DNA from: Patescibacteria group bacterium | Lineage (GTDB): Bacteria; Patescibacteriota; Patescibacteriia; PEXW01 | Reading direction: 5' to 3' | Length of the DNA stretch: 64,000 bases | Assembly (NCBI GenBank): GCA_041665345.1 | Contig: JBAYJA010000001.1 | Location: forward strand, 73,206-137,205 | In this document: positions 1,466-55,842 of the stretch, piece after piece | Layout: every line of letters starts with the position of its first letter | Position numbering within the stretch: position 1 is the first letter of the stretch | Program-made: the position numbers and the translations under genes | The notes under the pieces: generated by a model | Told to the model about the DNA's origin: nothing | The model's database searches: none | What the model saw: only the letters and a program-made list of their open reading frames with translations

Positions 1466-2035
1466 TTACTCCCCAGCCCGTGCCGTGTACTCGCCCGTCT
1501 CGGTGCTGACCATGATTCGTTCCCCAGATTTGATGAAGAGGGGAGCTTTGACTTGCAGGCCGTTGTCCAAGGTGATGGTCTTGGCGGTGTTGGTGGCGGT
1601 GTCCCCGCGCACGGCGTCAGGTGAGTCTGTCACGGTGTACTCAATTTTTTTGGGTAATTGAATGGTGACGGGCTTGCTCTCAAACTGCAGCACGTCCACC
1701 ACCAAACCCTCTTTTAGGTACTTCACCTGGTCACCCAGTTGCTCGGTGGTCAGGAAGAACTGGTCGTAGGTCTCCTGGTCCATAAAGTAGTGCTCCGTGT
1801 CCTGGGCGTACAGGTAGCTGGCTTTGGTGCGGGATAAATCTGCCTCCGGGATTTTGTCCCCAGGTTTGAAGGTTTGCTCCAGCACCCGGCCGGAAATAAG
1901 GTTCTTCAGCTTCGTCCGCATCACCGGTTTGCGTTGCGCTGTGCGCATGAAGTCAGACCACAGTACCACGTAGGGCTCGTTGTCGATGGTGATGGCGACC
2001 CCAATGCGGAGGTCATTCATGGTGAGGACGGACAT
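1466..2035 (-). CDS. efp: Elongation factor P.
   Basis: 189 aa. N-terminus NDLRIG..IDNEPYVV and KPVMRTKLKNLISGRV match the EF-P family. Confidence 0.9.
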   Translation of the reverse strand: MSVLTMNDLRIGVAITIDNEPYVVLWSDFMRTAQRKPVMRTKLKNLISGRVLEQTFKPGDKIPEADLSRTKASYLYAQDTEHYFMDQETYDQFFLTTEQLGDQVKYLKEGLVVDVLQFESKPVTIQLPKKIEYTVTDSPDAVRGDTATNTAKTITLDNGLQVKAPLFIKSGERIMVSTETGEYTARAGE

Positions 2036-2037
2036 AG

Positions 2038-2080
2038 GTTACGAATTACGAAATAAAGATACGAATATACGAATTACGAA
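2038..2080 (-). repeat. Tandem heptamer array (W)TACGAA, six units; TTCGTAA in gene sense. It ends 5 nt before the efp start codon.
   Basis: Plus strand reads GTTACGAATTACGAAATAAAGATACGAATATACGAATTACGAA. In efp sense it reads ...TTCGTAATTCGTAACCT-ATG. A G10 homopolymer follows at 2082-2091. Confidence 0.6.
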
Positions 2081-2202
2081 TGGGGGGGGGGAGGATGAGG
2101 AACGAAGAAGAGAGAACCAGATAAACCAAGCCTGGATCTCAATTGCGCCTTCCATCATCACCTTATAACCATACTCGCCGCCACACCCAAACCCTCAACC
2201 TC

Positions 2203-2445
2203 TTACCGCGGCGTATACGGCACGAGCGCCATGAAGCGTGCGCGCTTGATTGCTTCTGCCGTCATCCGTTGGTGGCGCATGCACAGACCCGTGCGGCGGC
2301 GGGGGAGAATCTTGCTGTAGGAGGAGATGAACTTCTGGTAGCCACGGGGATCTTTGTAATCCAAGGAGGTATTGCCCAAGACGCAGAAGTGGCACTGCTT
2401 GGGTGGCGGGGGGAGCGTGGCTTGTTTTTGACGTTGTTGGCGCAT
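2203..2445 (-). CDS. rpsR: 30S ribosomal protein S18.
   Basis: 80 aa with CHFC...LDYKD...FISSYSKILPRRRTGLC...QR...AIKRARFMALVPY. Confidence 0.9.
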   Translation of the reverse strand: MRQQRQKQATLPPPPKQCHFCVLGNTSLDYKDPRGYQKFISSYSKILPRRRTGLCMRHQRMTAEAIKRARFMALVPYTPR

Positions 2446-2463
2446 ACAGGGAGCAGGGGAGGA

Positions 2464-2898
2464 CTAGAATGGAATATCTTCGACGTTCACTTCGGGTTCT
2501 GCGTCTGCAGGAGCCGGGGTGTCCGTGGGGGCTGGGGCGTCAGCTGTTGGTGCAGCAGCGCGTTGGCCAGGGCGATCTAGCATGATGAGGTTTTCGGCCA
2601 CAATTTCCGTACGATACTTCTTCTGGCCAGAGGGGTCATCCCAGGAGCGGGTCTGCAACCGGCCTTCCACAAAGACTTTGGAACCCTTCTTGACGTACTG
2701 GCCAATAATTTCCGCCAGCTTGCGCCAGGCAACCACGCTGTGGAATTCCACTTGCTCTTTCTTCTGCCCGGCCGTGTCGGTCCAGGTGCGGTTGGTGGCA
2801 ACGCTGAAGAGGGCAACCTGCTGGCCGCCGCCGGTGGTGCGCACGTCGGGGTCGCGGGTGATGTTCCCAATGATCATGACCTTGTTGAGGTTCATCAT
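2464..2898 (-). CDS. ssb: Single-stranded DNA-binding protein.
   Basis: OB-fold N-terminus MNLNKVMIIGNITRDPDVRTT, a Pro/Ala-rich linker, and the acidic C-terminal tail EDIPF. Confidence 0.9.
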   Translation of the reverse strand: MMNLNKVMIIGNITRDPDVRTTGGGQQVALFSVATNRTWTDTAGQKKEQVEFHSVVAWRKLAEIIGQYVKKGSKVFVEGRLQTRSWDDPSGQKKYRTEIVAENLIMLDRPGQRAAAPTADAPAPTDTPAPADAEPEVNVEDIPF

Positions 2899-2936
2899 AT
2901 GTTCGTACGGGTAAGATGGAGTGTGGGAATGGAAAA

Positions 2937-3446
2937 TTACTTGACGGCGTCCTCGTCCAGGATCTCGTCAATCTTCTTGTCCAACTCATCCAGGGAGAGG
3001 GGGGCAGCATCCACAGCCGTCCGCTTGGGGGTGGCAGTTTCTGCCAGGCGGTCTGCAGCTTCCCGGGTTTGCCGAGCTTGCGCGTCTTCGCGGGCTTTGC
3101 GGGCTTGGATTTTCTCTTGGATCCGGGCTTCTTCTTCCAGTTCTTTGGCAGTCTTCAGCTTGGTTTGGATGGGCAAGAACCGAATGACTTCGTCCACCAA
3201 CTTCAATTTTCCCGTGAAGCCATTGAAGGCTGCGGGTTCCAGGTTGAAGTCCAGGTCCACGTAGGTGCCGGTTTTGTGCTTGCCAATGGGGTAGGCGAGC
3301 TTGCGCTTGCCAATGACGTGGCTGTTCAGAACCTCGCCTCCAGCTGCGGTCACCAGGTCGCGAATTGTTCCCAAGACGCCATCAGCTGCTTCAGGGGCAA
3401 CTTGGGAGCCAACGATGGCGAGTAGGTCGTAGTGTTTTGTAGCCAT
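2937..3446 (-). CDS. rpsF: 30S ribosomal protein S6 with a long C-terminal low-complexity extension.
   Basis: Starts MATKHYDLLAIVG. The rpsF-ssb-rpsR gene order is conserved. Start chosen at the internal Met of the 195-aa ORF. Confidence 0.85.
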   Translation of the reverse strand: MATKHYDLLAIVGSQVAPEAADGVLGTIRDLVTAAGGEVLNSHVIGKRKLAYPIGKHKTGTYVDLDFNLEPAAFNGFTGKLKLVDEVIRFLPIQTKLKTAKELEEEARIQEKIQARKAREDAQARQTREAADRLAETATPKRTAVDAAPLSLDELDKKIDEILDEDAVK

Positions 3447-3598
3447 GGAAAAAATGCCAAAAAATGTGTACCCACCGTACCACGTGGGGGGAAGGGAGTC
3501 AAGGGAATGGGACTGGCAAAGCACCGGAATCCATCAAATAGCCCCAGGTAGGCGGCTTTTGCTTTACGCCCTAGACCCGCAACCGCTACACTGCACCT

Positions 3599-4831
3599 AT
3601 GCACACTGGAGATTGGATTGCCTGTTTTGGCCGCGAACCCTCACTTTCGGCCTGGGAACTGTACCGCGTTACCGGGCAGGATTTTGGCACATTGCACAAG
3701 GAAGTGGCTGTCCTGCCGCCTATGCCTGGACATAGCTTGGTGCAGCTCCAGCAGCGCTGTGGGGGGCTGGTGAAGGTTGGGGAGGTCTTGGGCATAGCGC
3801 CTGACTTGGTGAGTCTCCACGCCACCCTGGTGCAGGCATGGCCGCAGTTGGTCCCGGCTGGGAGTACGGCCCGGGTCCACTTTGGGGTGAGTGTGTACGG
3901 TGCTGGCGGCGCGACGTTGCCACAGGTTCGAAAAGAAGCGAAGAACCTGGCGCAGGGTTTGAAGCGAGAGCTGGTGGAACGGGGTCGGTCTGCGCGGTTG
4001 GTCATTGCCAAAGAACCAGTCTTGCCAGCAGCAGCACTGATCCAGGGAAAAATCTTGGAACGGGGATTTGAAATTCTCATCCTCACCACCCCAGATGGTT
4101 TGGTCTGGGGGAAGACCGTGGCCGTGCAAGATATTAGCGGGTATGGCAACCGAGACGTGGGCCGGCCGCGGCGGGATGCAACGTCCGGCATGCTGCCGCC
4201 CAAGCTGGCGCAGATTATGGTGAACCTCACTGCGCCCCGGCCACAGGCAACGTTGCTGGATCCGTTTTGCGGTTCTGGCACGATTCTGCAAGAAGCTGCA
4301 CTCTTGGGGGTGGAGCACATCGTTGGTTCGGACATGAGTGACAAAGCTGTGCAAGATTCCACGGTGAACATTGCCTGGTTGCAAGAGCACAGCCAGGTCA
4401 CGAAAGACATCCGCGTCTTCCGGGCTGATGCTGCAGAAATTGCCAAGCATGTGAAACCAAACTCCATTGAGACCATTGCAACTGAGCCGTACTTGGGTCC
4501 ACCCCAACGAGGTGTGCCGCGCGGCAGAGTTCTCCTGCCACTCATCTCCGCACTCAGCCGGCAGTACGAGCAGTGGCTGCAGGCCATGGCCGACGTATTA
4601 CAACCGGGTGGTCGTTTAGCCATGGTCTGGCCTTTCTTTCAGGTGGAAAAGCAGGGGTACTTTTTGCAAGTGCAAGACGCAGCAAAGAACGCTGGTTTCC
4701 AGGTCATACAGCCGCCAACCTGGATGCTGGAGCAACCCTGGTTCCGCTCCACGCCGCGCGGCACTGTGCTGTACTCTCGACCTGACCAAGTAGTGGGCCG
4801 GGAAATTGCCTTACTGGAAAAACATGCGTAG
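3599..4831 (+). CDS. THUMP-domain class I SAM-dependent RNA methyltransferase (RlmL/Trm14-like).
   Basis: SAM-binding motif LLDPFCGSGTILQEAALLG, catalytic-region motif TEPYLGPP, and an N-terminal THUMP-like region. The start codon is uncertain. Confidence 0.6.
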   Translation: MHTGDWIACFGREPSLSAWELYRVTGQDFGTLHKEVAVLPPMPGHSLVQLQQRCGGLVKVGEVLGIAPDLVSLHATLVQAWPQLVPAGSTARVHFGVSVYGAGGATLPQVRKEAKNLAQGLKRELVERGRSARLVIAKEPVLPAAALIQGKILERGFEILILTTPDGLVWGKTVAVQDISGYGNRDVGRPRRDATSGMLPPKLAQIMVNLTAPRPQATLLDPFCGSGTILQEAALLGVEHIVGSDMSDKAVQDSTVNIAWLQEHSQVTKDIRVFRADAAEIAKHVKPNSIETIATEPYLGPPQRGVPRGRVLLPLISALSRQYEQWLQAMADVLQPGGRLAMVWPFFQVEKQGYFLQVQDAAKNAGFQVIQPPTWMLEQPWFRSTPRGTVLYSRPDQVVGREIALLEKHA

Positions 4832-5795
4832 CAAATGGTTCGGGGTGCTTGTCATCTTCGGCCTCACCTTTCCGGGTTTTGCCCACGCCAGCGCAACTTT
4901 GGTTTTTAGTGGTGACGTAATGCTGGGTCGATCAGTCCGCGATCAAATCAACCGTCGCGGTGGTGGAAATGGCGCCTGGGTAACGGCGAATCTTGCCAAA
5001 GTTTTTCGGCAAGCTGATTTGGCATTTGTCAATTTGGAGTCGCCGTTCCTCGCGGGCTCAGCTTCCAGCCAGGAAATGATTTTCCGCGCTGACCCAAAGC
5101 ACGTCACCGCGCTCACGGGCGCGGGTATTGACGTGGTTTCCTTTGCGAATAACCACAGCCGGAACCAGGGGAGCGCAGGCATTCAAGCCACGGTTGATCT
5201 GCTGCAGAAAAACCGGATCCTCGTTGCTGGCGCCGGCAGTACGTCAAAAGTCGCCTACGCGCCCCGCTTCTTCCAGGCTGGCGCAGTTCCGGTTGCGGTC
5301 TTGGCGTACACGTATGGCGAACGAGTGCTGACGACGAATATCCAGAAAACAACCATTGCTAATGTGGATATCTGGTTAATGCAAGCAGAGGTGAAGAAGG
5401 TGCGTGCCACAGGCAGGTTTGTGGTGGTGTCATTGCATGCGGGGAATGAGTACACCGTGGTACCAAACTCGCTGCAGAAGACTTTTGCCCATGCCGCTGT
5501 GGATGCAGGCGCCGATCTGGTCATTGGCCATCACCCGCACTGGGTGCAGCCCGTGGAAAAGTACAAAGGCAAGCACATTCTGTACTCCTTGGGGAATCTG
5601 GTTTTTGATCAAACGTGGTCGAAGAATACCCAGGAAGGTGCGGTGGCGCGGGTAACGGTGTCTGACCGGCGTCAGGTGACGCTAGAGGTGTTGCCAGTGA
5701 AAATCGAACGCACCAGCCAGCCGCGGTTCATGTCGGCTAGTGAGGCAAAACCGGTACTGCAGCGGATGCTGGTCCCGATCAGTGGGAAATTGTGA
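4824..5795 (+). CDS. CapA/PgsA-family metallophosphatase-like protein with a signal peptide.
   Basis: N-terminal signal MRSKWFGVLVIFGLTFPGFAHA. Motifs GDVMLGR, NLESP, FANNH and GHHPHW are typical of the CapA family. Confidence 0.65.
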   Translation: MRSKWFGVLVIFGLTFPGFAHASATLVFSGDVMLGRSVRDQINRRGGGNGAWVTANLAKVFRQADLAFVNLESPFLAGSASSQEMIFRADPKHVTALTGAGIDVVSFANNHSRNQGSAGIQATVDLLQKNRILVAGAGSTSKVAYAPRFFQAGAVPVAVLAYTYGERVLTTNIQKTTIANVDIWLMQAEVKKVRATGRFVVVSLHAGNEYTVVPNSLQKTFAHAAVDAGADLVIGHHPHWVQPVEKYKGKHILYSLGNLVFDQTWSKNTQEGAVARVTVSDRRQVTLEVLPVKIERTSQPRFMSASEAKPVLQRMLVPISGKL

Positions 5796-6448: not shown

Positions 6449-6544
6449 GGAAACTCCTTTTTATTGCGTTTGTTCATGTACGTTTGTAGTTTCTTACCCT
6501 ATCAGCACAATTTCCACTCGTCAAGAAAGGCGCTTTGTGGATAA

Positions 6545-6572
6545 AAAAAGCGCCGACCTTTCAATCAGCGCT
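6545..6572 (+). repeat. 28-bp direct repeat, copy 2.
   Basis: AAAAAGCGCCGACCTTTCAATCAGCGCT; one mismatch to copy 1. Confidence 0.6.
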
Positions 6573-6978
6573 TATATATGGTTGCCCGTGACAAGGTCAT
6601 CAGTGAGAGGGGATTAGCCTCTCGTAGATGGGATCACCTCCTTTACCGTAATGACCTGTACGGATGCAATCGGCTCAAAAGAATGCTTTCGAATCACTAT
6701 AGCCTCCTGATGCTTCACACCCAGCACCTGGGGTTTTGAGGTTGCGTACCATGGTGTCGTTTTGGGTAACGAACCGTTTCGTCTTCAGTATAACGAAAAA
6801 ACCTACACCCAGGGAAGAACTGGGTCAAGGTTTTGGATGTCGATAGGAGTATGGAGGGCAGGTAGAGTTGGAAGGTTAGCAGAGATGCTAATTTTCCCCT
6901 CCTTTCCAAGGAGCCGTCTGCGGCGGGTGCGAGCGAGTGCAGCACCCCCAGGTTAGGGGTGGTTCTGCTCTCCTTCTT

Positions 6979-7065
6979 TGTCATTCTGAGCCTCACTGCA
7001 GTGGGGCGAAGAATCTCCGTGGTTGGTTACAGTCTTCAGAGATCCTTCGAAGACTCAGGATGACA
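6979..7065 (+). repeat. MITE-like element with 12-bp terminal inverted repeats TGTCATTCTGAG / CTCAGGATGACA.
   Basis: A second copy at 38282..38388 shares the terminal inverted repeats and a 25-nt right-end block GAGATYCTTCGAAGACTCAG. Confidence 0.4.
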
Positions 7066-7153
7066 AAAAGCACCAAAGATCTCTACAGCTTTATGGCTCT
7101 ACCCCGACGATCCCACTGCGGGATGTCGGGGCGGGTGGCTTTCTGGCTTCTTC

Positions 7154-8301: not shown

Positions 8302-9300
8302 ATGTTTGAGAACATCCCATCGCCTTCGGGTTCTCCAAATCCAATTCCACCAACGCCACCCCCGCAGCCCTGGGCGCAACCCACGGGTGGGGTACCGCAA
8401 CCTGCAATGCCACCAGCACCAGTCCAGCCAATGCAGGATGGGAAAGACTGGGGACCGTTGAAGCCAATACGGAAAGTGCCCAAGCCTGGCGAAGAGCGCA
8501 TGCAGTCCACACTGGCGGTTGCAACCATGCCCCAGGTGGCGGATGTGGAAACCAAAACGAAGCTCGGTTTAATCTTAGGGCTGGTTGGCCTTGTCGTCAT
8601 CATTGGTGGTGGCACGGCAGCCTTTGTATTCTTTGGGAAGAAGACGGATGACTCGAAGCTGAACGATAACGCGAACAGCGTGGCTGTGCTGAGCAATGCC
8701 AACACGAACCGGTCAGTTTTCCCAGAGGGGAACAGCAATGTGAACCAGGCGGTGAATCAGAATGTAAATACTGCCGGAAATGTAAACACGGTAGGGAACG
8801 TCAATGCAGCGGGGAATGTGAATCAGGCTATTGTTCCAACTACTGCTGACACGGATAAGGATGGCATTTTTGATCAAGACGAGCTGTACTTGGGTACAGA
8901 CCCGGCCAAAACTGATACGGATGGCGATGGGTACTCTGACAGCAGTGAGCTACGTAAGGGGTATTCTCCTGTGAGTACTGCAGAGCTCACAGTTGCGAAC
9001 TACCACACCTACTGTACGGCGATGGTGGGTGGTGATGTCCCATTTGCTACTTGGACTAGCTCGGAAAGAGAAACGTACTGTACGAACTCGGAGACAGCGA
9101 CGAGCCGGCTCCTTCCTCAGCAAAGATCATTAGATACCGCTGCCTTCACGCAGCTGGTTGGCGACGAAATAAACACGACAAAAACTTTTTGCACGGAACT
9201 CTTCTCCCAAGTCACCAATGAGCAAGAGACAAAGGCAAAAAACTGTGTCTTTAGTCTCAGTAGTAGTTTTGCGGTTTTCTTTCAGCTCCCAGCCTCTTAA
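8302..9300 (+). CDS. Membrane-anchored protein with a Pro-rich N-terminus, one TM helix, an Asn-rich NVN linker and thrombospondin-type-3-like calcium-binding repeats.
   Basis: TM segment LGLILGLVGLVVIIGGG. Repeats NVNTAGNVNTVGNVNAAGNVN. Ca-binding motifs DTDKDGIFDQDE and DTDGDGYSD. Start chosen at MFENIPSP. Confidence 0.55.
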   Translation: MFENIPSPSGSPNPIPPTPPPQPWAQPTGGVPQPAMPPAPVQPMQDGKDWGPLKPIRKVPKPGEERMQSTLAVATMPQVADVETKTKLGLILGLVGLVVIIGGGTAAFVFFGKKTDDSKLNDNANSVAVLSNANTNRSVFPEGNSNVNQAVNQNVNTAGNVNTVGNVNAAGNVNQAIVPTTADTDKDGIFDQDELYLGTDPAKTDTDGDGYSDSSELRKGYSPVSTAELTVANYHTYCTAMVGGDVPFATWTSSERETYCTNSETATSRLLPQQRSLDTAAFTQLVGDEINTTKTFCTELFSQVTNEQETKAKNCVFSLSSSFAVFFQLPAS

Positions 9301-10124
9301 TTCTCAGCTAGTCGCAGAGTTCGCTCCAGCAGCATCGCCACGGTCACGGGCCCAACGCCGCCAGGTACGGGTGTTAGCCAGCCGGGCTGATTTGCCATAC
9401 TCGCTGCGTCCACATCGCCCACCACTTTCCCGTCTACACGGTTAAACCCCACGTCAACAATAATGACGTCTGGTTTGGTATGTTCAGCTTTGAGGAAACC
9501 AGCTTTGCCAAGGGCAATGACAATGAGGTCGGCGTCTTTTGTTGCTTGGGCAAAGTCACGGAAGGGGGGGTAGAGCAAGGTCACGTCCAAACCTGCACGG
9601 GTGAGCAGCATGGCCATGGGTTCGGCGAAGATGGGGCCATTTGCCAGCACCACCGCTTTTTTTCCGTCTAGAGGTACGCCGGGAACTTGTGCCAAAGCCA
9701 AGACACCTTCGCACAAGCCAGGAGCCAGTGCACCCGGCACATTCTGCTTGTAGCGTTCCAGGTTGGTTTTGTGAAAGCCGTCTGCGTCTTTTGCGGGATC
9801 AATGGCGGAAACCACCGTGTCAGCATTCAGCTGGTTTGGCAGCGGGAGCTGGACAATCATGCCACTGATAGCTGCGTTGGCATTGAGTGCTTGGATTTTT
9901 TGCACCACCGTTGCTTCATCCACTGTTGCGGGAAAGCGGTGTACTTCGGCATGGATGCCAACCTGTGCAGCAGCTTCTTCTTTGAGGCGAACGTAGGTGA
10001 CGGAAGCTGGGTCGTCACCAACCAAAACAATTGCTAAGCCAGGTCGGGTGCTGCTTGCGGCGCAGTGTGTCTTCACACTGCTGAGTATGCTATTAGCTAA
10101 TGCACGACCGTCAATCTTCTGCAT
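9297..10124 (-). CDS. folD: Bifunctional methylenetetrahydrofolate dehydrogenase/cyclohydrolase.
   Basis: 275 aa with GRALA and YVRLK motifs and a Rossmann-type GxG region. Confidence 0.9.
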   Translation of the reverse strand: MQKIDGRALANSILSSVKTHCAASSTRPGLAIVLVGDDPASVTYVRLKEEAAAQVGIHAEVHRFPATVDEATVVQKIQALNANAAISGMIVQLPLPNQLNADTVVSAIDPAKDADGFHKTNLERYKQNVPGALAPGLCEGVLALAQVPGVPLDGKKAVVLANGPIFAEPMAMLLTRAGLDVTLLYPPFRDFAQATKDADLIVIALGKAGFLKAEHTKPDVIIVDVGFNRVDGKVVGDVDAASMANQPGWLTPVPGGVGPVTVAMLLERTLRLAEN

Positions 10125-10126
10125 GA

Positions 10127-10169
10127 GTTACGAATTACGAATAGATACTACGAAAATACGAATTACGAA
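10127..10169 (-). repeat. Tandem heptamer array (W)TACGAA ending 2 nt before the folD start codon.
   Basis: Plus strand reads GTTACGAATTACGAATAGATACTACGAAAATACGAATTACGAA. In folD sense it reads ...TTCGTAATTCGTAACTC-ATG. Confidence 0.6.
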
Positions 10170-10353
10170 AAGGATATGTATGTAGAGAAGAGGAATTTTG
10201 ATGGAGGGGGTCGCCACCCACCCACCTTCGCCGAAGCGGCTTCGCGCAGGCAGGTATCGGTATACGGCATCGTCAATCGCGTAACGTACCGAGTACCGGA
10301 TCCGAAGCCTTACTTACGATACAGGCTGCGACACCGTCCTACGTTAGCCGAGT

Positions 10354-18639: not shown

Positions 18640-18829
18640 TTTCCGCCTCCCCCAACGGCATTATCGGGGTAGGGACGTAGAGACTTATTCATAAAACCCA
18701 GAGCGGCTTTTCTAAGCCGCGGTGGTTTGTTGGTGACGAACGGGCGGGAGGATCTCCGAAGAGTGTAACCTCCCACGGAGATTCTAAGTCCCACTACTGT
18801 GGGACTTAGAATGACAGTAAAGGGATAAT
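18640..18829. ncRNA. Candidate small structured RNA in a convergent intergenic region; several hairpins and an H-type pseudoknot. Identity unknown.
   Basis: No ORF. Hairpins GCGGCTT-TTCT-AAGCCGC and TTCTAAGTCCCAC-TACT-GTGGGACTTAGAA (13 bp). Stem GGGAGG/CCTCCC with loop segment ATCTCCG pairing to the downstream CGGAGAT. Confidence 0.25.
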
Positions 18830-25050: not shown

Positions 25051-25149
25051 GGCTCGCCAGCCGTAGCCCGAGAACAAACGTCGTGTCCTCCTACGCTCGG
25101 AAGCTTCGGAGGACAGCCTTCGCCCTCGTCAAAGCCCGAGGGCGAAGGC
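25051..25149 (-). repeat. Conserved module immediately 3' of tRNA-Leu, copy A: two strong hairpins plus GGCTNGCCAGCCGTAGC.
   Basis: Minus strand after the tRNA CCA end: hairpin AGCCTTCGCCCTCG...CGAGGGCGAAGGCT, then GTCCTCC...GGAGGAC, then GCTACGGCTGGCGAGCC. A near-identical module follows tRNA-Ser at 55656..55754. Confidence 0.5.
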
Positions 25150-25236
25150 TGGTGCCGGAGAGAGGACTTGAACCTCCATGGGATTGCTCCCACACGGCTC
25201 TGAACCGTGCGTGTATACCAATTTCACCACTCCGGC
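25150..25236 (-). tRNA. tRNA-Leu(CAG).
   Basis: Minus strand reads GCCGGAGTGGTGAAATTGGTATACACGCACGGTTCAGAGCCGTGTGGGAGCAATCCCATGGAGGTTCAAGTCCTCTCTCCGGCACCA. 7-bp acceptor stem, long variable arm, anticodon loop TTCAGAG, TTCAAGT T-loop, encoded CCA. Confidence 0.85.
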
Positions 25237-32047: not shown

Positions 32048-32192
32048 GAGGGGAGTATAGCAAGCTGCGAAAAGGGTTTGGGTGGTGGTGTGGCGGCGAG
32101 TATGGGTATGGTATAAGGTTGGAGGTTTTCCAAATCGCTCCACCCTTTAACCCCACTCGCTGCCACACCTAAACCCCCACCGCTCCATAGCC

Positions 32193-35191: not shown

Positions 35192-35443
35192 TTAGGGCAA
35201 TAGCGCTTTAAGAGCTCGCTTCACTGCGATAGCAGCATTGTAAGGAAAGTGCTTATTTCGCTCTGCTAATTTTCGGTCAATCGCCTCTTGAATGTCTTGG
35301 CGATAGATCTTGAATTTTTTTGAGCCATTAAACGACAAATTTACTGAACTTTTGCTGCACGAGTTCACAACGATGACACATTTTGCCCCCTTATGGTCAA
35401 TAGTTGTTTGCTCACCAGGCTTGACGGTGAGATTGAGGGGCAT
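35192..35443 (-). CDS. Small protein, 83 aa; weak resemblance to the carbon-storage regulator CsrA fold.
   Basis: RBS GGAGG upstream. N-terminus LNLTVKPGEQTTI resembles the CsrA L.L[ST].K..E...I pattern. The diagnostic GxxxxAP...R.EI motif is only partly present. Confidence 0.35.
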   Translation of the reverse strand: MPLNLTVKPGEQTTIDHKGAKCVIVVNSCSKSSVNLSFNGSKKFKIYRQDIQEAIDRKLAERNKHFPYNAAIAVKRALKALLP

Positions 35444-35545
35444 GTTGTGCCTCCGTTGAAGTAAGAACCAGGTTGGTGTGGATTTTTGGGAAACTTGTTT
35501 GAGTTCGGGGAGTATACCAGGAGTTGGGGGAATGTCAAGGATGCA

Positions 35546-35608
35546 GTTACGAAATACGAATATGGTTACGAATTACGAAATAAAGATACGAAACTACGAA
35601 TGTACGAA
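35546..35608. repeat. Tandem heptamer array (W)TACGAA, about eight units.
   Basis: TTACGAAATACGAATATGGTTACGAATTACGAAATAAAGATACGAAACTACGAATGTACGAAT, then GGGGAGGGAATGGG. A 28-nt block is identical to part of the 2038..2080 array. Confidence 0.6.
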
Positions 35609-35828
35609 TGGGGAGGGAATGGGAATACGGTGTGCAAGATTGTGCAACGTTTCCCTCGCCCTTTGAGGGAGAGGGAACAAGGGAGAGGGGGAGGCGGTTT
35701 GGGTGTGGCGGCGAGTGGGGTTATAGGGTATAGGCGTAGGTTGGTCCAAAGACCATTTTCCAAACCATCTACCCTAACGAGCCTCCATACCCTTCACCCC
35801 TGCCCCTGCTTCAAGGTAGGATACCAGC

Positions 35829-38281: not shown

Positions 38282-38388
38282 CTGTCATCCTGAATTATAT
38301 GACCTGTCCGCCGAAGCAGCAGCGTAGGTGGAATGATCCCCAGACGATGTATCAACTTCGGAGATTCTTCGAAGACTCAGAATGACAG
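38282..38388 (+). repeat. MITE-like element, copy 2, with terminal inverted repeats CTGTCATCCTGA / TCAGAATGACAG.
   Basis: Shares the terminal inverted repeats and the right-end block GAGATTCTTCGAAGACTCAG with 6979..7065. Confidence 0.4.
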
Positions 38389-38689: not shown

Positions 38690-38781
38690 GCACCAAGTAT
38701 CATGGGTTTTTCACACATAGGCAAGCTGGGGCTGGCTCTTGACACCCCGTTTTTCCCTGCTACAATCAGGAGTACAGCGGT

Positions 38782-38808
38782 TTAGCACTCTCATGGTCGA
38801 AGTGCTAA
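38782..38808 (+). promoter_or_regulatory. CIRCE operator (HrcA binding site) upstream of groES.
   Basis: TTAGCACTC-TCATGGTCG-AAGTGCTAA against the consensus TTAGCACTC-N9-GAGTGCTAA (one mismatch). Confidence 0.7.
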
Positions 38809-38813
38809 AACTG

Positions 38814-38936
38814 GTTACGAAATACGAAATTTCGTACGAAAATACGAATTACGAACCCATTTACCAGCTAGTTGCAAGAGTAGTTGAAACCGTTCGTATT
38901 TCGTACTTTCGTAGCATTTCATTCGTAATTCGTAAT
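38814..38936 (+). repeat. Two inverted arrays of the (W)TACGAA heptamer, five TACGAA units then five TTCGTA units, flanking a 35-nt core; the array ends 5 nt before the groES ATG.
   Basis: GTTACGAAATACGAAATTTCGTACGAAAATACGAATTACGAAC ... GTTCGTATTTCGTACTTTCGTAGCATTTCATTCGTAATTCGTAAT, then TACTT-ATG. Confidence 0.6.
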
Positions 38937-38940
38937 ACTT

Positions 38941-39219
38941 ATGCAGCTCAAACCCCTGGGCGACAGAATTGTGGTGAAGCCCGCCACGCAGGAAGAAGTG
39001 ACCAAGTCCGGTATCGTGCTCCCAGACACCGTGGATAAGGAGAAGAAGGAGCAAGGTGAAATTATCGCCATTGGCTCCGGTGAAAAGATTGCCAAGCTCA
39101 ACCTCAAGGTTGGCGACATTGTGCTTTTTGGCAAGTACTCTGGCGATGAAGTAGATGTGGAAGACACAGAGTACAAAATCCTCAAGGACGAAGACGTCCT
39201 GGCAATTCTCCTCAAGTAA
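38941..39219 (+). CDS. groES: Co-chaperonin GroES.
   Basis: 92 aa with LKPLGDRIVVK and the mobile-loop region. Confidence 0.95.
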   Translation: MQLKPLGDRIVVKPATQEEVTKSGIVLPDTVDKEKKEQGEIIAIGSGEKIAKLNLKVGDIVLFGKYSGDEVDVEDTEYKILKDEDVLAILLK

Positions 39220-40890
<1,671 letters not shown>

Positions 40891-55655: not shown

Positions 55656-55754
55656 GGCTTGCCAGCCGTAGCTCTTCCAACATACTCTATGTCCTCCTTC
55701 GCTAGGAGCTTCGGAGGACAGCCTTCGTCCTCAACAAAGCTTGAGAGCGAAGGC
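55656..55754 (-). repeat. Conserved module immediately 3' of tRNA-Ser, copy B.
   Basis: GGCTTGCCAGCCGTAGC, then hairpins GTCCTCC...GGAGGAC and AGCCTTCG...CGAAGGCT, in the same order and position as after tRNA-Leu. Confidence 0.5.
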
Positions 55755-55842
55755 TGGCGGAAGGGGCGAGATTCGAACTCGCGATACCTTTCGGTATACT
55801 CGCTTTCCAAGCGAGCGCACTCGGCCACTATGCGACCCTTCC
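55755..55842 (-). tRNA. tRNA-Ser(GGA).
   Basis: Minus strand reads GGAAGGGTCGCATAGTGGCCGAGTGCGCTCGCTTGGAAAGCGAGTATACCGAAAGGTATCGCGAGTTCGAATCTCGCCCCTTCCGCCA. Long variable arm, anticodon loop TTGGAAA, TTCGAAT T-loop, encoded CCA. Confidence 0.85.

Follow-up and report, generated by a model that had tools for sequence, protein, structure and literature searches.

Introduction

Miniature inverted-repeat transposable elements (MITEs), REPINs (doublets of repetitive extragenic palindromes, or REPs, with their RAYT transposase) and the Correia elements of Neisseria are short, multi-copy intergenic imperfect palindromes whose ends have a fixed polarity. They are cargo-less derivatives of a protein-encoding parent, vary between strains, are co-transcribed as strong hairpins, and can alter the expression of adjacent genes. 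Here we analyze arrays of the hexamer TTCGTA (TACGAA on the opposite strand) that lie in four spacers of a 64-kb stretch from a metagenome-assembled genome (MAG) of the Patescibacteria (Candidate Phyla Radiation, CPR). We refer to this whole stretch as the window, and all array coordinates are window positions. The arrays are most like MITEs and REPINs, Correia elements, and free-standing homing-nuclease genes that sit between genes, while lacking several of the defining features of each. We read them as the multi-hexamer inverted-repeat ends of a nuclease-associated, MITE-like family of intergenic elements found across Patescibacteria, and put the probability of this reading at about one half.

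With MITEs, REPINs and Correia elements the arrays share palindromes of fixed polarity, dispersed related copies, strain polymorphism, cargo-less forms and a position upstream of genes. Unlike in MITEs and REPINs, each end is built from one hexamer repeated four or five times, with spacers free to vary, rather than from one long inverted repeat, and the associated protein is a ~130-aa GxxExxY / PDDEXK_3 nuclease rather than a Y1 (RAYT) or DDE transposase. They further differ in showing no target-site duplication, in a hexamer that is constant across the superphylum, and in lying ~8 nt from start codons. A small nuclease gene wedged precisely between conserved operon genes recalls the free-standing homing-endonuclease genes seg and mob of T4, and flanking inverted repeats that could stem-loop the insert out recall the 23S rRNA intervening sequences with small open reading frames (ORFs). 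In contrast to both, the arrays persist and spread without the nuclease gene, and no homing site or cleavage is known; the host is a cellular lineage, unlike that of seg and mob, and the targets are mRNA spacers, unlike those of the 23S insertions.

Three further comparisons concern regulatory sites. The operators of omega of pSM19035, the MetJ metboxes and the CtsR heptads are built of 7-8-bp repeat units bound by multimeric repressors. The arrays resemble these heptad and octad operators in having 7-8-bp direct or inverted units with invariant cores and free flanks at gene starts, but their sequence is unrelated, the linker between dimers varies from 5 to 9 bp, they have no known cognate regulator, nearly identical strains differ through gain and loss of copies, and a nuclease gene is enclosed. 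As for the E. coli rpsA leader and the A-rich leaders of Bacteroidota, an upstream element, structured or repeated, and an A-rich single-stranded stretch before the AUG accompany highly expressed genes that have no Shine-Dalgarno (SD) sequence; here too the sequence is unrelated, and orthologues lacking the array are SD-less as well. The streptococcal SigX (ComX) box TACGAATA can lie 7 nt from the ATG (PMC6001120). This 8-mer is identical to the hexamer plus TA on the inward strand of the arrays, which is a resemblance only: the box points away from efp, folD and groES, and it is repeated four or five times. A sequence-only reading of the window had not recognised the motif as any described one, and no published description was found in the literature searched.

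Results and discussion

A composite hexamer motif upstream of core genes in many classes of Patescibacteria

A strict pattern scan of one genome per species, together with a refined scan of metagenome contigs, yielded at least 155 non-redundant copies across CPR classes with the composite form TTCGTA-NN-TTCGTA-N5-9-TTCGTA-W-TTCGTA-R. The copy statistics below refer to the 155 non-redundant copies pooled among the matches listed. The strictest version (N5 linker, terminal G) was found in Moranii-, Sungii-, Staskawicz-, Falkow-, Sacchari- and Parcubacteria MAGs, and nearly all of the matches listed from metagenome contigs have the composite form. The element is thus not "lineage-specific", as had been proposed from the window alone. 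The NN dinucleotide is TA in 59% of copies, the linker is 5 nt long in 86% and 6-9 nt in the remainder, A or T precedes every hexamer, and at the position just past the final hexamer G stands in 75% and A in 21%. A scan tolerant of mismatches returned 159 perfect copies vs. 37 with one to four mismatches, and none in shuffled sequence. Among 2.9 million viral contigs there were zero strict copies.

The motif has a strongly preferred position and orientation relative to genes. A start codon with an ORF follows 2-16 nt downstream in 71 of the 155 copies (46%), with a peak at 8-9 nt, and 60 copies face the start in the forward orientation vs. 5 in the reverse (12:1). The possibility that the arrays are scattered at random, raised with the sequence-only reading, is answered by this oriented enrichment across Patescibacteria. 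When the ATG lies at 7-10 nt, the base at +1 is G in 100% of copies, A is found at +4 in 83% and at +5 in 75%, and +4 to +6 is A-rich overall. Another 42 copies fall into an 'other' class; the array near the csrA-like gene of the window is likewise away from a start codon. The downstream genes are diverse, mainly core and highly expressed, and many are internal to operons. They include ribosomal-protein genes (S10, S16, S17, S21, L7/L12, L11, L13, L20, L22, L24, L25 and L36), chaperone and protease genes (GroES three times, GroEL, HtrA), pilus genes (PilB/PilT four times, PilC twice, a pilin), and MreB (twice), DnaA, DnaE, SSB, HU, RRF, RbfA, EF-P, BipA and PheT.

Upstream of single motif copies we found no conserved element and no -35-like signal, and canonical promoters are not enriched downstream of motifs (17 vs. 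25 in two control regions). No motif stands directly before a tRNA or other non-coding RNA (ncRNA) gene. An Rfam scan of 20 loci without an ORF downstream of the motif returned distant tRNAs only. Just one of 51 tRNA genes comes within 300 nt downstream of a motif, and it has a TTGACT-N17-TATAAT promoter of its own.

A simple heptamer microsatellite, (TTCGTAA)n, was considered and rejected, since the copies in the window and in other CPR genomes are composite, their successive spacings being 7 or 8, 11-15 and 7. Perfect (TTCGTAA)n arrays of 5 to >80 units do occur in Nostoc, Planktothrix, Bacteroidota, Planctomycetota, a Vibrio and others (the non-CPR loci L003-L121). These are ordinary heptamer microsatellites and unrelated noise; no GxxExxY gene was found near those of cyanobacteria and Bacteroidota even at E<=1. 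Three loci of Gammaproteobacteria-labelled MAGs (L026 at 1908-5405, L200 and L232) hold a variant in which array pairs surround a 26-nt palindromic core, TGCTTCCTGACGTCAGGAAGCA, with five copies of this variant element within 8 kb.

The usual element is a palindrome that fills the intergenic spacer

All 13 full pairs are arranged in the same divergent manner, a TACGAA arm followed by a TTCGTA arm, and convergent pairs are absent. Their loop is often the 6-bp palindrome AACGTT. When 70 nt upstream were folded together with the motif, 44 of 67 start-proximal copies had both dimers paired with an inverted copy upstream, at a median minimum free energy of -34.5 kcal/mol; in 7 the distal dimer alone was paired, and in 14 neither dimer. 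Two thirds of start-proximal copies are therefore the 3' arm of a long imperfect palindrome. The helix reaches GC|TACGAA...TTCGTA|GC, and the left arm begins 0-7 nt past the upstream stop codon; the usual element is a 70-110-bp imperfect palindrome that exactly fills the intergenic spacer.

Conservation is confined to the hexamers. Spacer positions are complementary between the arms in only 27 of 94 cases, about what chance would give, and a purely structural RNA element was rejected on this ground. That conservation lies on the hexamers and not on base-pairing points to recognition by a protein.

A small nuclease gene between the arrays

Of five genes adjacent to the motif in reverse orientation, three are homologues of one another. 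The shared gene, ~130 aa long, belongs to the GxxExxY family (TIGR04256, 92-99 bits) of the PD-(D/E)XK superfamily (PF13366) and has an intact D...ExK motif; its function was not described in the literature searched. A tblastn search over all loci found it at eight CPR loci. In 7/7 complete loci selected by their arrays, the GxxExxY gene lies, in either orientation, between TACGAA and TTCGTA arrays with at least four hexamers on each side. The inner face of the array reads TACGAA-WW, followed after 6-15 nt by the ATG of the GxxExxY gene.

The association also holds in the converse direction. Five GxxExxY homologues were picked solely for their long contigs, and all five lie between co-directional operon genes: rpsG|fusA, pilT|pilC, secD|secF, galT-like|tpiA and 51K-like|Fe-hydrogenase. 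A right array is present in 5/5, with the host ATG 5-9 nt later, and a left array in 4/5, beginning 1-4 nt past the upstream stop and finishing 1-24 nt before the nuclease ATG. Overall, left and right arrays enclose the GxxExxY gene in 12 of 13 loci. Small GIY-YIG ORFs (67-86 aa) were seen in other spacers of the operons that hold GxxExxY cassettes, upstream of rpsL and downstream of pilC; no TTCGTA arrays surround the GIY-YIG ORFs at L251 130-390 and L259 3191-3393.

Arrays in the window

In the window TACGAA occurs 63 times, compared with 17.4 ± 4.4 expected, and 0/100 shuffles reach 63. The excess comes entirely from five clusters (2040-2080, 10129-10169, 35548-35608, 38816-38855 and 38893-38934), which correspond to five composite (W)TTCGTA arrays at four loci, far above chance. 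The arrays and the features next to them are listed here.

1466-2035, minus strand: efp, identified by Pfam, last gene of rpsF-ssb-rpsR-efp, no SD
2036-2081, minus strand: solo array upstream of efp, five TTCGTA hexamers in gene sense, ending TTCGTAACCT-ATG
2082-2091, no strand: G10 homopolymer (C10 in the sense of efp), touching the inner end of the efp array
9297-10124, minus strand: folD, identified by Pfam, no SD
10125-10170, minus strand: solo array upstream of folD, five hexamers, ending TTCGTAACTC-ATG, repeat family D1
35192-35443: csrA-like coding sequence, identified by Pfam, with a normal GGAGG SD
35511-35538, minus strand: promoter of the csrA-like gene, sigma-70-type TTGACA-N16-TATACT, from a promoter scan
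35546-35608, minus strand: csrA-side array, seven hexamers, 9 nt upstream of the -35 of the csrA promoter
38739-38766, plus strand: groES promoter TTGACA-N16-TACAAT, from a promoter scan, kept in relatives
38782-38808, plus strand: controlling inverted repeat of chaperone expression (CIRCE) operator TTAGCACTC-N9-AAGTGCTAA, kept in the related loci L245-L248
38814-38855, minus strand: left arm of the groES pair, five hexamers with TACGAA on the plus strand, no cargo between the arms
38856-38892, no strand: core (loop) between the arms of the groES pair, 37 nt
38893-38936, plus strand: right arm of the groES pair, five TTCGTA hexamers, ending TTCGTAATACTT-ATG
38941-39219, plus strand: groES, identified by Pfam, no SD
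39238-40890: groEL, identified by Pfam, no SD

Pfam matches are to EF-P, FolD, Cpn10 and Cpn60, plus the CsrA-like protein. The 14-mer TTCGTAATTCGTAA occurs 10 times in the window when up to two mismatches are allowed, against 0.31 expected, and in gene sense the arrays end TTCGTAATTCGTAA-CCT-ATG at efp, TTCGTAATTCGTAA-CTC-ATG at folD and TTCGTAATTCGTAA-TACTT-ATG at groES. In gene sense, hexamer starts are spaced 7, 8, 13 and 7 nt, so that a linker of 6-8 nt separates three units from two. The spacing is conserved: the series 7, 13, 8, 7 at efp and folD has its counterparts in 7, 12, 8, 7 and 7, 14, 8, 7 for the two groES arms. The 48-nt repeat family D1 has 77-81% identity among the window copies. 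Some copies are more closely related to one another than the hexamers alone: the linker TCTTTAT is common to the efp and csrA copies, and the end TTCGTAACC(AG) to both of these, to the left arm at groES and to the arrays before efp in relatives.

Much of the sequence-only reading of these loci stands. It had placed the arrays correctly, at 2038-2080, 10127-10169, 35546-35608 and 38814-38936, and had noticed the shared 14-mer just before the starts of efp, folD and groES, which we confirm at gaps of 3, 3 and 5 nt. The absence of a recognisable SD from these three genes also holds: none has a GGAG-type SD, and the N-termini agree with the family starts. The G10 tract at 2082-2091 is present. At groES the inverted pair of five-unit arrays does lie downstream of CIRCE, as well as of the TTGACA-N16-TACAAT promoter, while its core measures 37 nt and not 35. 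The description of the element as occupying the place of a ribosome-binding site (RBS) applies to efp, folD and groES, but not to the csrA array, which is not beside a start codon and whose gene has the GGAGG SD.

Promoter scans found no sigma-70 promoter near efp or folD. Canonical promoters stand beside window arrays and none within them, and no TANNNT was found at leaderless distance from the host ATGs. Rfam scans of the window arrays, at the gathering threshold and at E<=5, gave no match at any array.

The reverse order of motif and CIRCE was seen outside the window: in L208, at ~9359-9390 in reverse-complement coordinates, a dnaJ gene is divergent from a motif that is followed after 53 nt by a CIRCE-like TTAGCAATC-N9-GAGTGCTAA, whereas in the window CIRCE precedes the groES arrays.

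Arrays are gained and lost between close relatives

The arrays of the window are polymorphic among close relatives. Among EF-P orthologues at least 90% identical and in the same rpsF-ssb-rpsR-efp context, five upstream hexamers are present in the window and in L241 (where one is mutated), only the proximal dimer ATTCGTAATTCGTAACCAG in L243 and L244, and none in L240 and L242. All of these orthologues have the same SD-less TATGTCC start, array or not. Where the window has its G10 tract, CCCA or CCCTCCCG is found in relatives, which makes the tract strain-specific; it is prone to slippage, but no sign of phase variation was seen.

A similar result was obtained at groES by comparison with four syntenic uvrC-uvrA-csrA-...-groES-groEL loci, L245-L248, whose GroEL proteins are 97, 92, 91 and 83% identical. 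All four relatives keep the groES promoter and CIRCE and have neither arrays nor an SD. L245 keeps the csrA promoter and lacks the csrA array. Conservation in related genomes is thus absent for the groES and csrA arrays and variable for the efp array. Because orthologues without the array are equally SD-less and have the same start, the array is dispensable, and the suggestion that it is what makes these genes SD-independent does not hold. Short motifs of the CGGTATACGG / GGTATCGGTATACGG type recur between genes in the window (10243-10262, 2209-2222), and they also occur in the csrA upstream region of L245 (6690-6970), where the window has its TTCGTA array.

In the window organism, clear SDs are found in about a quarter of the genes, and leaderless-type promoters of the form TAnAcT-N6-ATG (TACACT, TATACT or GATACT) lie at 3599, 14857(-), 38689(-) and 56574; leaderless expression seems common in this organism. 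With a quarter of genes having an SD and several leaderless promoters present, SD-less starts are common whether or not an array is there. The groEL gene starts 18 nt after groES (the spacer is 39220-39237) with neither SD nor array, so SD-independent initiation or coupling operates there without the repeat.

A model for the element and the points that weigh against it

The observations can be assembled into a model with three forms of the element. Architecture, polarity, spread across the phylum, association with the nuclease gene, strain polymorphism and the restriction of conservation to the hexamers are all observed; binding by a protein, mobility and the means of tolerance are inferred. 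The full-length form runs from the upstream stop, through 1-4 nt and a left end C-TACGAA-W-TACGAA-N4-5-TACGAA-NN-TACGAA, into the ~130-aa GxxExxY gene in either orientation, and closes with a right end TTCGTA-NN-TTCGTA-N4-6-TTCGTA-W-TTCGTA-G about 8 nt before the following gene starts with its ATG. If the nuclease gene is lost, what would be left is the 70-110-bp imperfect palindrome, which is MITE- or REPIN-like, and further loss would leave a solo end. By this scheme the groES locus of the window would hold a cargo-less pair, and the efp, folD and csrA loci a solo end each, all recent strain-specific gains or losses. The invariant hexamers would be protein binding sites, most economically for the GxxExxY nuclease acting in cis or in trans, and the protein that binds them would make the element mobile or direct its homing. 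In these compact genomes the element appears to persist only in the short gap of a few nucleotides that separates a stop codon or 5' untranslated region (UTR) from the next start, presumably because there it does not abolish downstream expression. Harm may be avoided by pairing of the arms in the transcript, which would bring the upstream stop and the downstream start together or form an RNase III-type stem; a second possibility is an expression signal that points outward from the outer end. Such an outward role, as a promoter or in SD-independent initiation, is possible, and if the outer end does carry a signal it would be a portable 32-bp phylum-specific part.

Several results weigh against this reading. 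No target-site duplication or clean filled/empty junction could be defined in the efp, groES or csrA comparisons, and at groES and csrA the flanking spacer in relatives is replaced, not simply interrupted. The 64-kb window has no GxxExxY gene, and GxxExxY proteins are not known to act as transposases or homing enzymes. What the copies have in common is limited to the hexamers and 2-4 terminal bases; they lack the full-length identity of young MITEs. Selfish repeats seldom keep one and the same hexamer in classes that diverged so deeply, a pattern that agrees with a conserved reader in the host. The 12:1 orientation, the 8-9-nt spacing, the invariant G at +1 and the A-rich +4 to +6 point to a gene-start function, as does the excess of ribosomal-protein, chaperonin, pilus and replication genes downstream. 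Occupation of the pilT|pilC junction in several divergent organisms could equally reflect long vertical retention of a useful element.

A more ambitious version of the model, which we offer tentatively and think rather improbable, is that arrays and GxxExxY nuclease form an unrecognised system that lets a selfish cassette sit in essential operons without polar effects. The arrays would pair in the transcript and be read by the nuclease or a host factor, so that the insert is looped out or processed, or they would provide an SD-independent initiation or promoter signal 8 nt before the start. If this system were real, arrays at the RBS position would be a phylum-specific expression signal on which the host relies for many ribosomal-protein, chaperonin and pilus genes. 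The main reading, for its part, would give the large, uncharacterised GxxExxY family (TIGR04256 / PF13366) a first genomic role, as enzyme or partner of a repeat family, and would define a Patescibacteria-wide class of repeats in the spacers just upstream of core-gene starts. The question bears on the annotation of gene starts and operons, on how SD-less genes are expressed in Patescibacteria, and on the choice of expression signals in the few genetically tractable members. It is also relevant to assembly quality, because many GxxExxY homologues are on very short contigs.

Alternative explanations

If the arrays are not primarily ends of an element, their position before start codons could mean that they act in the transcript, as an SD-independent initiation element UUCGUA-W-UUCGUA-R located 4-13 nt before the AUG and bound by a conserved factor, either ribosomal or RNA-binding, such as an S1-like protein with several domains. 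Ribosomes would thereby be recruited to SD-less cistrons, and the inverted arm would mask the element or couple it to translation of the upstream gene. This explanation, which we hold to be doubtful, accounts for an RBS-like and fairly broad spacing with a peak at 8-9 nt, for the 12:1 orientation, and for an A-rich spacer without an SD. It also accommodates arrays at internal cistrons (groES|groEL, L29|S17, S19|L22, IF1|L36, L35|L20 and S7|EF-G), GTG and TTG starts 9 nt past the motif at mreB, rbfA and frr, the lack of motifs directly before tRNA and other ncRNA genes, and a 5-9-nt linker whose variability suits a reader with flexible domains. At groES, with promoter and CIRCE both upstream, the arrays should be in the 5' UTR. 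It has difficulty with the array-less orthologues that are equally SD-less and start at the same codon, with the csrA array, which lies upstream of the -35 and outside any plausible transcript, and with the copies of the 'other' class. Moreover, each array adjoins the GxxExxY start with its inner face, in the opposite orientation, some downstream genes have an SD of their own 20-30 nt past the motif (L155, L186 and L188), and no complementary rRNA segment is known. The groES pair taken alone could be seen as an RNA thermometer that masks the initiation region of a heat-shock gene, and a structured thermosensor was among the roles first suggested for the arrays. The RNA fold of 38776-38960 is indeed strong (-58.7 kcal/mol, z = -6.5), with its base 5-6 nt from the AUG. 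A helix that stable would not melt at physiological temperatures, however, and the AUG itself is unpaired; the solo arms at efp and folD are unstructured (-0.5 and -6.0 kcal/mol), the closest relatives control groES by CIRCE alone, and identical pairs precede ribosomal-protein, pilus, sec and glycolytic genes. We therefore consider a thermometer highly improbable.

The same arrays may instead act as DNA, as a compact promoter or operator module: a portable promoter, or else an operator site for a global regulator or an alternative sigma factor. Outward transcription from it would yield mRNAs of highly expressed genes with a very short leader or none, and inward transcription would express the nuclease gene. 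The module is self-contained, with nothing conserved upstream of single copies, and a purine follows the last hexamer in 97% of listed copies. CGTA cores resemble the -10 elements of extracytoplasmic-function (ECF) and sigma-I type. In the N5 class, TTCGTA-17 nt-TAWTTC fits sigma-70 spacing and the junction of hexamers 1 and 2 reads TANNTT (TATATT in 59%), while the inward face TACGAA-WW equals the SigX box, 6-15 nt from the GxxExxY ATG. The window organism uses leaderless promoters, efp and folD have no sigma-70 promoter nearby, and some copies stand in tandem with canonical promoters (csrA, L132 and L201), like P1/P2 pairs. Against a promoter speak the lack of TANNNT at leaderless distance from host ATGs and the misfit between rigid sigma recognition and both the 5-9-nt linkers and the gap to the ATG, which is 4-6 nt in the window lineage vs. 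8-9 nt elsewhere. Upstream genes would be exposed to antisense transcription from the left arms, GTG and TTG starts speak against strictly leaderless mRNAs, 0/51 tRNA genes in the loci are directly served, and the 2.9 million viral contigs hold no strict copy. Taken together these points make a promoter or operator module unlikely. Rigid promoter models (a sigma-70 17-nt spacer, an ECF-like CGTA, or a leaderless start at the ATG) were rejected, as they fit the class with an N5 linker and 8-nt gap and fail for the window lineage, with its N6-8 linker and 4-6-nt gap. A SigX/ComX promoter for efp, folD and groES was likewise rejected: the box is on the opposite strand, and its orientation is right only for the GxxExxY genes.

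Other repeats and features of the window

The window holds a second dispersed intergenic repeat of ~40 nt, GGTTTGGGTGTGGCGGCGAGT(A/G)TGGTTATAAGGT, at 2160-2204 (reverse complement), 32070-32127 (plus), 32142-32181 (reverse complement) and 35690-35742 (plus). It always points to the downstream gene (efp, uvrA, uvrC and a 308-aa gene), ~90-125 nt upstream of the ATG, and the copy upstream of efp is conserved in relatives. This repeat may be a promoter-bearing element.

A region of ~700 nt at 6449-7153 has no ORF and no Rfam match, and contains a 14-nt copy of the 16S 3' end, GGATCACCTCCTTT (6631-6644). The GGATCACCTCC match at 6631 was considered as an rRNA and rejected; it is not one, and neither the window nor the loci retrieved include a 16S rRNA gene of this lineage. 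The same region holds a repeat of the GTCATTCTGAGC...GAAGAATCTC type, found again at 18749-18823 (inverted, 80% over 75 nt) and 38356-38387 (91%). A 51-nt repeat, 88% identical between its copies, lies at 25102-25152 beside tRNA-Leu (25150-25236) and at 55707-55757 beside tRNA-Ser (55755-55842).

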